A DNA stretch of 64,000 bases from a virus, in the IMG/VR virus record IMGVR_UViG_3300026097_000008, positions 64,001-128,000 of that record; one strand, written 5' to 3'. Below are positions 4,009 to 43,450 of this stretch, in pieces. The position numbers and the translations under genes are program-made. Under the pieces are notes generated by a model. The model had not been told where the DNA came from. It ran no database searches and was given only the letters and a program-made list of their open reading frames with translations. The first letter of the stretch is position 1. Every line of letters starts with the position of its first letter.

Positions 4009-4419
4009 TTAAAAGAGTAATGTTTTGTCTGATATCTCTTGAATTTTATCGTTTTTTAACACAAATTTAGTTATGTCATCTAGATGAATATGATAAGGAG
4101 TATTATCTGGAACACTAACAAATGGAACATGGTGATATGTTTGCACTGTTTCGCCTAACCAGTCCTCTTCTATAACTGGAATTTTCATAACATCTTCGTT
4201 GAATCCTTTTGTAGTTCCAATTACAAATTTTTCTTTCCCGTCATCTTCGTCTATATAAAAAATTATTACTTCGTTTTCTTTTAACAAAGCACGTATCCAG
4301 TTTCTTAATGTTTCACGATCTTTTTGGCTTTTGTAAAGGGCTGTGGCGTCGCCTTCTTTAACTTTTCTTTTCTTCACTGTATAGGTCACAAGCTCATGTG
4401 TCCGTAATTCTTCAATCAT
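4009..4419 (-). CDS. Hypothetical protein (possible small SH3/WYL-like beta-barrel)
   Basis: 136-aa ORF with GGAGG RBS; last gene of the enzyme operon. The fold guess is weak. Confidence 0.55.
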   Translation of the reverse strand: MIEELRTHELVTYTVKKRKVKEGDATALYKSQKDRETLRNWIRALLKENEVIIFYIDEDDGKEKFVIGTTKGFNEDVMKIPVIEEDWLGETVQTYHHVPFVSVPDNTPYHIHLDDITKFVLKNDKIQEISDKTLLF

Positions 4420-4421
4420 GC

Positions 4422-5156
4422 TTATCCTCCAAAATGTTTGTAATACAAATCTTGTATTATATTTCTTTTAAACGTAAAATTTGCACTTCTAAAATATTTC
4501 TTTTTGTCTAACCAAAATTTGTCTAAACTATTCATTTCTCTGCATACTATATCATAATCTTTTTCAGATAATGGAATTATATGAGCCAATGGTGTGCCTG
4601 CTTTAATCAACACGTCGCCTTTTTGAACATTGTAATATAATTGAATATTTATTTCATTACTATACCCAGGATTGAGAATACCGATAGAACTTTCAAATTC
4701 AAAATTATCTGGATATGCAATAGGCAACATTAATAATTTTACACCTCTAGGTGCAACAACGTGCCATGGTGTATTTATTTTTACAAATGTATTAAGACTC
4801 CACGGCTTAATAGGCATTTCTGTGCCGACTCCGTTAGATTGATTTTCTACAATGTTAACTTCCGGTGTCAAACTGGCGAGATCTGACGAAGGCACAGTCC
4901 ATGTAAACTCGTCTGGATTGCCGTTGGTGCTTATAATAACATCATGCCACATTGGCACAACAAATCCGTGCTTAAATAAATCGAATATACCAGGACACTG
5001 ATATATATGACTCATTGACCCTAAAGTTCTATTCTTTTTCTTTACATAGGAATCTCTAGCTATTTTTGTCCAAGCTGGCATCGCATCCTTTGCTTTTACA
5101 ATAGGATATAAATCTGGAAGTCCCGGAACAGTCGAATAAAATTCTATTTTTTTCAT
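4422..5156 (-). CDS. Conserved phage protein (DUF6065-like / dUTPase-like beta-clip fold)
   Basis: Motifs CPGIFD..GFVVP, INTPW...P.G..LL and IKAGTPLAHIIP, typical of proteins found beside phage 2OG oxygenases. ATGA overlap with the upstream gene. Confidence 0.55.
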   Translation of the reverse strand: MKKIEFYSTVPGLPDLYPIVKAKDAMPAWTKIARDSYVKKKNRTLGSMSHIYQCPGIFDLFKHGFVVPMWHDVIISTNGNPDEFTWTVPSSDLASLTPEVNIVENQSNGVGTEMPIKPWSLNTFVKINTPWHVVAPRGVKLLMLPIAYPDNFEFESSIGILNPGYSNEINIQLYYNVQKGDVLIKAGTPLAHIIPLSEKDYDIVCREMNSLDKFWLDKKKYFRSANFTFKRNIIQDLYYKHFGG

Positions 5157-41334: not shown

Positions 41335-41820
41335 TTAGATTGCTGTAAGAATAAGCACGTTTTCAGCAGAGTCGTTATCAACATACCAAGTATACTGGTT
41401 GTCGTCGAACCCTGTAATCTTACGTCCTGAAATTTTCTTTACAAAGACTTGAGTTCCTGAATCAGTTCCTACAAATCCACGTAGTACCATTTCGTTATTA
41501 CCAATGCCCGACGACCCGTCATCATCCACAAGTTTACATACTCCTACGCCGTTAGCTTCTGAATATACTTTGAATCTACGAGCACCTTTTTGTTGTAAAA
41601 TATAGCAACTGTTTGGTCCATCATCTTGCACATCTACCGCTGCTGTGCTTGAAACTTTAGCTTTGTACACTGGAATGTTATATCCTTTTTGACGATCTGT
41701 GCTTGCAGATGTAGTATCAAATCCGTGGATATTACGGCCGTCTCCTGTATCAGGGTATCCTGATGTGCTTGTTGTTGATCCTAGTGGACCGAAGTTCTTT
41801 TTACCTAGTGGTCTTCCCAT
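41335..41820 (-). CDS. Hypothetical late protein (possible head decoration or neck protein)
   Basis: MGRPL..K.FG N-terminus and YILQQKGARRFKV; strong AAGGAG RBS; downstream of a late promoter. Confidence 0.6.
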   Translation of the reverse strand: MGRPLGKKNFGPLGSTTSTSGYPDTGDGRNIHGFDTTSASTDRQKGYNIPVYKAKVSSTAAVDVQDDGPNSCYILQQKGARRFKVYSEANGVGVCKLVDDDGSSGIGNNEMVLRGFVGTDSGTQVFVKKISGRKITGFDDNQYTWYVDNDSAENVLILTAI

Positions 41821-41912: not shown

Positions 41913-41924
41913 ATGTATTTATCA

Positions 41925-41963
41925 AAAGAGAAAAAAGCCCGACACAGTTAAGCATCGGGCTTT
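41925..41963 (-). terminator. Rho-independent terminator
   Basis: AAAGCCCGA...TCGGGCTTT stem, extendable by G-U pairs on the minus strand, followed by TTTCTCTTTT. Confidence 0.8.
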
Positions 41964-41965
41964 AT

Positions 41966-42176
41966 AAAAAAGTGGGTGAAGGACTTGGGTTTACCTCCAA
42001 CTAAGCGCCTAGATACCTTTCATCGTTAACACTTAGAACCTTGCTCTGTCTAGTATGACAGTGTGCGTACTCCTAGTCTCCTAAGTCTACGCCGGGCACT
42101 ACCCCTAACAAGTGCGCTTATCCTCTCTAGAAACAGGATTATTAGCGCCAACCCTTGTAACAACGTCTTGCTACAG
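41966..42176 (-). ncRNA. Candidate independently transcribed structured ncRNA (~210 nt)
   Basis: ORF-free and GC-richer than its flanks, bracketed by a sigma70 promoter and a terminator. At least six stems are visible (see findings). Confidence 0.65.
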
Positions 42177-42181
42177 TAATA

Positions 42182-42209
42182 ATAATAACATCACTGCAAC
42201 AAATGTCAA
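42182..42209 (-). promoter_or_regulatory. Sigma70-type promoter
   Basis: TTGACA, 16-nt spacer ending TGT, then TATTAT (extended -10), immediately after the capsid terminator. Confidence 0.65.
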
Positions 42210-42231
42210 CCACTTTTTTTAAAAAAGTCAT

Positions 42232-42257
42232 AAAAAAAGGCCCCGTAGGGCCTTTTT
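42232..42257 (-). terminator. Rho-independent terminator of the major capsid gene
   Basis: AAAAAGGCCC-TACG-GGGCCTTTTTTT, with a cUACGg (UNCG) tetraloop; potentially bidirectional. Confidence 0.9.
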
Positions 42258-42280
42258 CTTGTTGTCGTTCTAAGTTAAAC

Positions 42281-43450
42281 TTAGCTGAATGACAAGTTCC
42301 CAGTTGTAACTGTGATCTCGTCTAGGTAGTCAGCTGCATTACCTAGTGACGATGCTGTGTTTGATAGCTCAACATAACCATAACGTGTCATGAATGATAC
42401 GACTGGCTCAAATGTTGATGGATCTAGTACAACACCACTGCTCATCAATGGAATGTATGGGCAGTAGAACGCTGCTGCGTCTGATTCTGAAGTACCTTTG
42501 TACCCAACAAGAATGTTGTCATCAGATGCATATGTGTTTACATACACTTTCATTGCATTGTTCAATGTACCAACCATCTTAGTGTTAGTTGGTGCTTCGA
42601 ATGTACCTTCTGTTGTACGTGCAAACGCTGAAGTAGTTGCTGACTGTAGGATTGTTAACACTGTTGGTGAAACAACTGCCCAATTACCAGCACCACGACG
42701 TGTACGCTGTGCGATACGGTTTGCTGCGCGGTTCATAAGAACTGCTAGAGCAGCATGCTCGTCGCCAACGAATGTTGCAGTACCACTTACTGCTGCCTGA
42801 TCGTATGTATCAGTTGCACCAGCTAGTGTGAATAGTGAAGCAAGTACTTCTTGGTCGATTTCAGCAGTAATCTCTTGAGCAAGTGCTGCCATGATTTCTG
42901 CTTCTACGTCGATGCCGTGCTGCGACTGAGCGTCTTGTGCAGACTCAAAAGTCCAACGTGCGCTTAGTTTACGAGTCTTAGCTTCAACTGTTTGCTTCAA
43001 GATTTGAATGCTTAGTCTGTTTCCAGCTGCACCTTCTAGTGCTGCTGTTGCATCAGCTTTAGCAGTTGTAGCATTACCCGAGTATGCTTCTGCAATCTTG
43101 AATGGGCTTAGAGCCTCTTCGCCTGCTACTGCGCCGCTTGCGTCTGAGCCAGCTGTGTCCGAATAACGAACACGTAATGTGTGGATTTGACCCACAGGAC
43201 CAGTCATAGGCTGAACACCTACAAGCTCGTTTGCAATGACTGTTGGCATTACACGACGAATAACTGGAAGAATAACACGGTTAAGTGTTGCGATATTACC
43301 GGCAGAGGTAGCACCAGCTGTAGCAGTCTCTGCGAGATACGAGCGAGTATTCTCTAGAGTAGTTGCCATAACAGATTTCTTTGTGCCTTGTAGGCCTTCA
43401 AGTAGAGCTGTTTTGGTGTCCTGCCAGCGACTTTCTAGTAGTTCTGACAT
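42281..43450 (-). CDS. gp23: Major capsid protein, T4 gp23 family
   Basis: RRVMPTVIANELVGVQPMTGPVGQI, VEAKTRKLSARWTFE.AQD...HGIDVEAE, AFYCPYIPL and TRYG. Confidence 0.95.
   Translation of the reverse strand: MSELLESRWQDTKTALLEGLQGTKKSVMATTLENTRSYLAETATAGATSAGNIATLNRVILPVIRRVMPTVIANELVGVQPMTGPVGQIHTLRVRYSDTAGSDASGAVAGEEALSPFKIAEAYSGNATTAKADATAALEGAAGNRLSIQILKQTVEAKTRKLSARWTFESAQDAQSQHGIDVEAEIMAALAQEITAEIDQEVLASLFTLAGATDTYDQAAVSGTATFVGDEHAALAVLMNRAANRIAQRTRRGAGNWAVVSPTVLTILQSATTSAFARTTEGTFEAPTNTKMVGTLNNAMKVYVNTYASDDNILVGYKGTSESDAAAFYCPYIPLMSSGVVLDPSTFEPVVSFMTRYGYVELSNTASSLGNAADYLDEITVTTGNLSFS

Follow-up and report, generated by a model that had tools for sequence, protein, structure and literature searches.

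A member of the manA RNA family (Rfam RF01745) lies on the minus strand at positions 41969..42173 of a 64,000-nucleotide (nt) stretch of viral DNA, positions 64,001 to 128,000 of the IMG/VR record IMGVR_UViG_3300026097_000008; the whole of this stretch is called the window below. The Rfam cmscan search gave 78.6 bits against a gathering score of 55.2, with an E value of 2.6e-18 over the window, and the match spans model positions 1-192 of 192; the gathering threshold is therefore exceeded over the full RF01745 model, which gives family membership by score. An original prediction, made from the letters of the DNA, had described a stand-alone structured RNA beside the capsid gene, noted a loose likeness to manA, and otherwise proposed a new class. 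The likeness to manA was correct, and the new class falls with the strong Rfam hit, the outcome that the same prediction had named as the end of its novelty. The element is a catalogued manA RNA. What was already known is the family; what is worth keeping is a context that runs from promoter to terminator and is uncoupled from the next open reading frame (ORF).

The gene 5' of manA, on the same strand, encodes a T4 gp23-like major capsid protein of 389 amino acids (aa) (42281..43450; Pfam PF07068 Gp23, E 2.4e-101; PHROG 138, major head protein), and manA starts 107 nt 3' of its stop codon. Between the two lie the intrinsic terminator of the capsid transcript (42232..42259, minus strand), a 12-base-pair (bp) stem with a GC-rich core followed by a T-run, and a sigma-70-type promoter, TTGACA-16-TATTAT with a TG extended -10 (42182..42209, minus strand), which matches 11 of 12 consensus positions and leaves 7 nt between the -10 element and the base of the P1 hairpin. 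The capsid stop codon is followed by a terminator also in the related loci that were read. A second intrinsic terminator, that of the manA unit, begins 6 nt 3' of manA (41926..41963, minus strand; hairpin 41963-41934, a 12-bp stem and a U-tract, -19 kcal/mol). Scans of the window gave 6 promoter-like sites, where shuffled sequence would give 2.8, and 4 terminators, where it would give 0.7, and the manA promoter is one of only three or four intergenic sites of its type in the 64 kb. The predicted primary transcript extends from about 42175 to about 41928, approximately 248 nt including the terminator hairpin, with a manA core of 205 nt, and the sole ORF within the RNA is a 37-aa frame with a TTG start (42050-42163, minus strand). 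Both terminators, the promoter and the lack of other frames in the RNA had been anticipated and were all borne out, as was the view, from the signals on the minus strand, that the RNA is a transcription unit of its own, with a host-type promoter and terminator, set in a late structural module. The promoter is presumably early, to judge from its consensus motif.

The manA architecture consists of a P1 hairpin, a closing helix, a P2/P3 arm, a four-way junction (P4-P7), and the P8 and P9 hairpins. Computed from no more than the sequence, the minimum free energy (MFE) fold contains the helices of the Rfam structure, and the fold of the whole transcript has a z-score of -3.4. Among the seven stems originally proposed, five agree with both the Rfam alignment and the MFE fold: UGUAGCAA/UUGUUACA is P1, AUCCU/AGGAU is P3, GCGUA/UACGC is P6, CUGUC/GACAG is P7, and GGAGG/CCUUC is P9. 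The other two are unsupported. The strands of the long-range UAAGCGC/GCGCUUA stem pair instead as GCGCU/AGCGC in P2 and CUAAGUG/CGCUUAG in P8, the latter being paired in 94.6% of cells across relatives; GCACU/AGUGC is the second unsupported stem. The UUGG/CCAA alternative at the 3' end, taken at first for a switch, is covariation inside P9, where the window has GGAGG/CCUUC and many relatives have GUUGG/CCAAC. A pseudoknot read from the square brackets of the Rfam structure line was also rejected; the brackets mark the nested closing helix, which is formed in the MFE fold.

Relatives were collected by a capsid-protein scan of IMG/VR, which returned 80 loci with capsid identities of 80-93%. The Rfam manA model gave full-length matches in 18 of 83 records; 4 of these exceed the gathering score, and the others, at 29.7-53.8 bits, are clearly homologous all the same. 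A covariance model (R1) was made of the window sequence and the Rfam structure, and a second (R2) was built from the R1 hits; R2 yielded 27 matches in 25 loci of the capsid clade, with 23 distinct alignment rows. A plain MAFFT alignment was out of structural register, and covariance-model alignments were used in its place. Across the 23 distinct rows, 91.3% of the cells hold a standard pair, a share that falls to 60.9% on shuffling and to 38-48% with slid partners; two-sided changes occur in 43 of 48 pairs, and the covariation score is 0.684 against 0.208 for shuffles, 0 of 500 of which reached it; all these figures are generous, because the alignment was fitted by the model and the sequences are related. 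The structural covariation signal is nonetheless strong and unambiguous, and it supports the consensus secondary structure of RF01745 in the model-fitted alignment.

Two parts of the structure illustrate the signal. The closing helix, which joins the linker between P1 and P2 to the 3' tail, occurs in five complementary forms (GGGU/ACCC, GAUAG/CUAUC, GCUUUG/CAAAGC, GCUUAG/CUAAGC, and UAUUAG/CUAAUA), and the cognate strands beat permuted pairs in 5000 of 5000 trials. The window and its closest relative (L086 = L040) differ at 7 of 205 positions, and two compensatory swaps of base pairs in the P6 extension account for 4 of them.

The manA RNA was found after the major capsid gene in approximately 40 related viral contigs, and wherever both flanks are readable the order is the same: capsid terminator, sigma-70-type promoter, manA, strong terminator. 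Twenty-three of the 25 hits have a promoter of the form TTGACn, a 15-18-nt spacer ending in TGn, and TAnnnT, and the remaining two have near-variants. The distance from the promoter end to manA is 8-13 nt in 21 of 25 hits and 22 nt in 2. Of the 22 hits whose downstream region is readable, 19 have a terminator hairpin (-10 to -19 kcal/mol) with a U-tract that begins no more than about 15 nt past the end of manA, the exceptions being L005, L020, and L029. In L020 and L029, a tRNA-Gly(UCC) gene (4366-4439 and 4499-4573, respectively) stands between manA and the terminator, and the two RNAs appear, from this arrangement, to be co-transcribed from the manA promoter as a stable-RNA operon. In L005, approximately 170 nt of unannotated, ORF-poor sequence (4626-4815) separate manA from the terminator and late promoter; this stretch has no Rfam hit at E <= 0.01 and may be a second RNA co-transcribed with manA.

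The same context was present in 15 more IMG/VR contigs, picked by an exact 25-mer of the window manA. The capsid gene of the clade lies just 5' in 13 of them, the retrieved stretch stopping short of it in the other two. All 15 copies have the same promoter, and the terminator, the late motif and the freshwater-2 leader described below are present in all 12 copies with enough downstream sequence, while three end at or within the terminator. Conservation along the locus is uneven. Between the window and L040, identity is 96.6% in manA, 89% in the terminator, 79% in the capsid gene, 78% in the promoter, 68% in the late promoter with freshwater-2, and 35% in the spacer around the manA promoter. 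Such a profile would mean either that nearly every manA nucleotide is constrained or that the cassette moves among related phages.

The next gene has signals of its own. A T4-type late-promoter-like motif, GATAAATAC (41915..41923, minus strand), with the core ATAAATA, is followed by a freshwater-2 RNA (RF02980; 41818..41901, minus strand), a leader that contains the Shine-Dalgarno sequence and ATG of a 161-aa ORF. The freshwater-2 match scores 73.1 bits against a gathering score of 49.9 and covers model positions 1-84, directly 5' of the gene. The gene itself, a putative late gene (41335..41820, minus strand), encodes a protein with the N-terminus MGRPLGKKNFG..., for which there was no Pfam or PHROG match, only unnamed viral clusters in the ESM Atlas at 0.84, and no clear paralogy with the ORFs that follow. 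A homologous N-terminus, MGRP(L/I/V)NK, follows freshwater-2 in relatives. The T4 late-promoter consensus is TATAAATA, and from it we infer that ATAAATA is a late promoter of the carrier phage. The window contains 15 ATAAATA sites; 7 are intergenic, 13-123 nt 5' of gene starts in the structural module, and two more stand at gene ends, 12 and 89 nt before the next start.

In relatives, the ATAAATA motif and the freshwater-2 leader come after the manA terminator in nearly all cases. By the Rfam model, 12 of the first 20 related loci have freshwater-2 behind the capsid gene; by a motif regular expression 34 of 53 do, with ATAAATA no more than 60 nt 5' of it in 34 of 34. Copies of the leader lie, for example, at L012 4702-4784, L011 5390-5471, and L028 4290-4374. 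In approximately 10 loci there is no insert, and the terminator, late promoter and leader follow one another directly, with freshwater-2 113-152 nt after the capsid stop. Because its own late-promoter motif and freshwater-2 leader are kept in relatives that have no manA, the downstream gene is uncoupled from manA, and the 161-aa gene is predicted to be served by freshwater-2, not by manA. The orphan freshwater-2 family, on which no pertinent paper turned up in the searchable literature, thereby receives a place, as a leader beside a late promoter, for the gene after the major capsid gene, in an uncultured jumbo phage clade.

Recent structural work bears on the molecular behaviour of manA RNAs. 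A preprint (bioRxiv 10.64898/2026.07.01.735769) reports, from cryo-electron microscopy (cryo-EM), that manA RNAs form octamers, decamers, and a 60-subunit icosahedral cage of pentamers. The contacts that it names are, in one group, the L5-L7' and L8-L9' kissing loops and, in the other, an L6-P6' GNRA-receptor contact, L5-L7', and L3-L8'. When the helices of the present RNA are numbered sequentially, its hairpin loops coincide with the loops named in the preprint, L6 being of the GNRA type (GAGA). The complementarity within the window sequence extends over 5 bp for L5-L7 (UAGUG/UACUA), 4 bp for L3-L8 (UUUC/GAAA), and 3 bp for L8-L9 (GGU/ACC). The window RNA and the RNAs of the preprint are members of the same Rfam family, with counterparts of L5-L7', L8-L9', L3-L8', and the GNRA L6; assembly was seen there by cryo-EM, whereas here it is complementarity in sequence that is seen.

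The loops were compared across relatives by the length of the Watson-Crick run in cognate and in partner-permuted loops, with distinct pairs. For L8-L9 the mean run is 4.12 in cognate and 3.32 in permuted pairs, a value reached in 0 of 5000 permutations, and the pairs include AUGAUC/GAUCAU, CUGAU/AUCAG, AGGAU/AUCCU, CAGAA/UUCUG, GAGA/UCUC, and AUGA/UCAU. For L3-L8 the corresponding means are 3.76 and 2.96, and 0 of 3000 permutations attained the cognate value; its pairs include UACCA/UGGUA, ACCA/UGGU, and CCCA/UGGG. Among the control loop pairs, three gave no significant result and one, L7-L8, was borderline (37 of 3000). Covariation of L5-L7 was not significant (671 of 5000 permutations), these loops being complementary in most sequences and varying too little for such a test. 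P8 has approximately 13 bp with an internal loop, P9 has 5 bp, and the joint between them is only 2 nt; an intramolecular L8-L9 kiss therefore seems unlikely, as it would be sterically awkward. By analogy with the preprint, homo-oligomerisation through kissing loops would most likely be the molecular behaviour of this RNA.

Taken together, the own promoter, the insulating terminator, and a next gene with its own late promoter and leader suggest that manA is not a switch of its neighbour here but functions as an RNA in its own right. The reading preferred here, to which a probability of roughly 0.6 is given, is that the host polymerase transcribes manA early as a small RNA, which acts in trans and probably self-assembles. 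The host RNA polymerase would start at the base of P1 from the near-consensus sigma-70 promoter with its extended -10, presumably from the onset of infection. The RNA of approximately 205 nt would fold into the manA architecture, on which the Rfam model, the MFE fold and the covariation agree. The strong intrinsic terminator 6 nt further would end the transcript and insulate the next gene, which would be driven by its own T4-type late promoter and the freshwater-2 leader; the anatomy of this arrangement is observed, and the promoter identities are read from motifs. The stable small RNA would then act in trans, not as a riboswitch of the neighbouring gene, and its copies would homo-oligomerise through loop-loop kissing contacts. 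For this clade, the context probably contradicts the cis-regulatory label and fits a trans-acting, probably self-assembling RNA. The further step, that manA is no riboswitch at all and that this early phage RNA assembles during infection into closed oligomers or cages made of RNA alone, inside the cell, is put forward tentatively. If it is true, the co-variation of L8-L9 and L3-L8 is the evolutionary footprint of intermolecular contacts in a jumbo phage clade, and the cages formed in vitro correspond to a structure that exists in nature and has a cargo or target.

Several points weigh against the preferred reading. The early timing and the assignment of late promoters are read from consensus motifs. 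Self-assembly is known from one preprint, and there in vitro and for other manA sequences; the helix numbering was matched to that of the preprint by inference, from the facts that only hairpin loops are named and that L6 is GNRA. The L8-L9 and L3-L8 complementarities of the window are short, the permutation tests ignore phylogenetic relatedness, the alignment made with covariance models leans to the model structure, and covariation cannot separate intramolecular from intermolecular contacts. Elsewhere, manA directly precedes an ORF without a terminator, as in Pelagibacter phage Mosig, where a start codon lies 23 nt 3'.

A trans-acting RNA could also work as a stable monomer that serves as decoy, sponge or scaffold and binds a protein of the host or the phage, for instance a nuclease, a defence sensor, or an RNA chaperone, the oligomers seen in vitro not being the form that functions. 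An anti-defence decoy or protein sponge had been offered in the original prediction as a possible role. A stand-alone unit and strong conservation suit any trans-acting RNA, the shortness of the two loop complementarities in the window is in keeping with a monomer, and a small cold-shock-like ORF lies directly 5' of the manA promoter in several relatives. This explanation is nevertheless doubtful. The contact loops named in the preprint co-vary in the clade, which is unexpected for free protein-binding loops, the steric difficulty of the L8-L9 kiss within one molecule speaks for contacts between molecules, and no conserved neighbour gene points to a protein partner.

The established view of manA is that of a cis-regulatory element. 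Weinberg et al. described it in 2010 as probably cis-regulatory, a probable riboswitch found in 5' untranslated regions (UTRs), with a range of marine metagenomes, T4-like cyanophages, and two gamma-proteobacteria (PMC2864571); Rfam types it accordingly, a cyanophage paper of 2023 repeats the view while noting that the regulatory role is unverified (PMC9964418), and the July 2026 preprint still calls manA a putative cis-regulatory element (10.64898/2026.07.01.735769). Applied to the window, manA would be an aptamer and the 41963-41934 terminator its expression platform, with read-through controlling the 161-aa gene. The terminator does follow the RNA on the strand of the next gene, and the position of manA before an ORF in Mosig is of the expected kind. 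However, the terminator lies outside the manA fold: in the MFE structures of whole transcripts it is intact beside manA in 17 of 17 cases (the window and 16 relatives), and its arms never pair with the manA body. Its sequence varies between relatives, and no conserved anti-terminator was seen among the transcripts compared. The tRNA-Gly gene before the terminator in two relatives and the downstream gene's own late-promoter motif and leader, conserved with or without manA, likewise argue against a cis-regulatory role here, and no ligand is found in the searchable literature 16 years after the description of the motif. A riboswitch or attenuator at this locus is thus improbable. The potential 5' UTR placement, on which the Cis-reg type is based, was found neither here nor in the relatives; this weakens the claim of cis regulation, not the membership in the manA family.

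A third explanation, that the capsid terminator is read through and manA is a 3' UTR element of the capsid mRNA or a fragment processed from it, the promoter-like site being fortuitous, could draw on the short distance to the capsid stop on the same strand and on the abundance of the capsid region in metatranscriptome contigs, but it is very improbable: a strong terminator stands 5' of manA, the type and distance of the promoter are kept across approximately 40 loci though the spacer is not (35% identity between the window and L040), and several relatives have further ORFs in the interval from the capsid gene to the manA promoter. A small protein gene is extremely improbable, for although the 37-aa TTG frame exists, the substitutions follow the paired helices, with changes on both sides in 43 of 48 pairs, the RNA covariance model is matched over its full length, and the length differences among relatives are not multiples of three.

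The window RNA shares with the RF01745 family its helices (among them the P1 hairpin, whose loop is GACG, the four-way junction with the closing helix, and P9 at the 3' end) and a phage carrier from marine or brackish water. It differs in that the carrier is a jumbo myophage, not a T4-like cyanophage or Photobacterium, and in that it has its own promoter and terminator, with a second promoter and a second Rfam leader before the next ORF. With blastn, a sequence search that lacks the sensitivity needed for this family, manA gave one short hit among cultured phages, in Pelagibacter phage Mosig. This phage, EXVC030M, is a cultured T4-like pelagiphage and carries an unannotated manA of 64 bits (L108 1845-2052; MT647606.1 about 108164-108371), and a gene for a gp32-like single-stranded DNA-binding protein is also found 3' of it. 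Like the RNA of the window, the Mosig manA is above the Rfam cut-off and has a promoter, TTGACA-17-TATATT, immediately 5'; unlike it, the Mosig manA has no terminator, and the Shine-Dalgarno sequence and ATG of a putative rubrerythrin gene follow it in the classical position of a leader. The host-type promoter is thus common to the Mosig and jumbo phage contexts, while the terminator, and the independence of any ORF that comes with it, is found in the jumbo phage clade only among the contexts examined. A cis role of manA in other contexts is possible.

ROOL, GOLLD, OLE, and raiA are large structured non-coding RNAs of phages and bacteria, often phage-borne and often beside tRNA genes. Homo-oligomers made of RNA only are reported for them in work that the preprint cites (10.64898/2026.07.01.735769). 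The manA RNA is far smaller, at approximately 200 nt, and is not homologous to them; the window has no Rfam hit for any of the four.

Since 2010, manA has been a candidate riboswitch without a ligand, and in 2026 it was reported to assemble in vitro into RNA-only cages while still being called cis-regulatory. The present locus and its approximately 40 relatives are a natural experiment, in which the structure is under strong selection, the RNA has its own promoter and terminator, and there is no gene to regulate in cis. The question therefore moves from the ligand to the role of a free, possibly self-assembling phage RNA early in infection. With its consensus sigma-70 promoter and strong terminator, the locus is a compact construct usable for testing.

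Hints of expression come from metatranscriptomes. Six runs each contain about 9% of the words sampled from a 2.2-kb query, and four were examined. Contigs wholly within manA were found from three studies: one of 157 nt with one difference (X16, 41980-42136), one of 177 nt (X15, 41980-42157), and two of approximately 90 nt (X18). They are a weak hint that manA is expressed, because Logan contigs reveal neither the ends of a transcript nor its strand or level, and DNA may be present in RNA libraries. The use of metatranscriptome coverage as proof of discrete transcript ends was dropped for this reason; cover over the promoter and terminator flanks is nearly absent and was given no weight.

The IMG/VR record with the window has 154,976 bases and a CheckV completeness of 44%, and model searches found one manA and one freshwater-2 in the whole of it. 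It encodes a T4-like portal, a prohead protease, and a gp23-like capsid protein (Pfam, PHROG). The capsid protein is 66-70% identical in amino acids to those of Vibrio phage 2.275.O, Sinorhizobium phage Phosso, and the E. coli 121Q/PBECO4 group, whose genomes are all approximately 350-470 kb. From these T4-like proteins and the capsid identity to phages of such size, the carrier is identified as an uncultured Rak2/121Q-like jumbo myophage. In 2.275.O, Phosso, and 121Q, only 100-150 nt separate the capsid gene from the next gene, and no manA or freshwater-2 was found above threshold, a blank model search that does not prove absence. The stretch occurs in DNA runs with the labels marine plankton, saltern, estuary, aquaculture, and "soil". 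The habitats (marine, salt-marsh, saltern, estuary) are in line with the known marine range of manA, and a jumbo phage is not among the carriers listed for that range.

The gap after the capsid gene has varied contents. Among the 53 loci with at least 700 nt after this gene, 19 carry manA, and in relatives the gap may be empty or be occupied by small protein genes, by a small ORF behind a glutamine riboswitch, or by manA, in some cases together with a tRNA gene. The space between the capsid terminator and the late promoter is, judged from these loci, an accessory-gene hot spot with manA as one cargo. Because the cargo of the hot spot varies, the position of manA beside the capsid gene appears incidental and is not evidence of a functional link. 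Glutamine riboswitch aptamers (RF01739, 50-55 bits) occur in L012 (4234-4281) and L033 (3972-4021), 3' of the terminator and a TAAATA motif; a Shine-Dalgarno sequence and an ORF of about 28-50 aa follow them, just 5' of the manA promoter, and the same small ORF precedes manA in the close relative L086/L040. An ORF of about 70 aa whose C-terminus resembles a cold-shock domain by eye (...GD.VEYE....NG.KYA.N...) is present in L004, L035, L005, and L087-L094, and often ends within the -35 region of the manA promoter. In L038 (3775-4200) and L018 (3640-4150), a putative IscU/NifU-like iron-sulfur scaffold ORF (MAYTDAVLEHYNNPKNVGSL...) and a putative secreted CHAP/NlpC-like ORF, further cargoes of the hot spot, were noted by eye.

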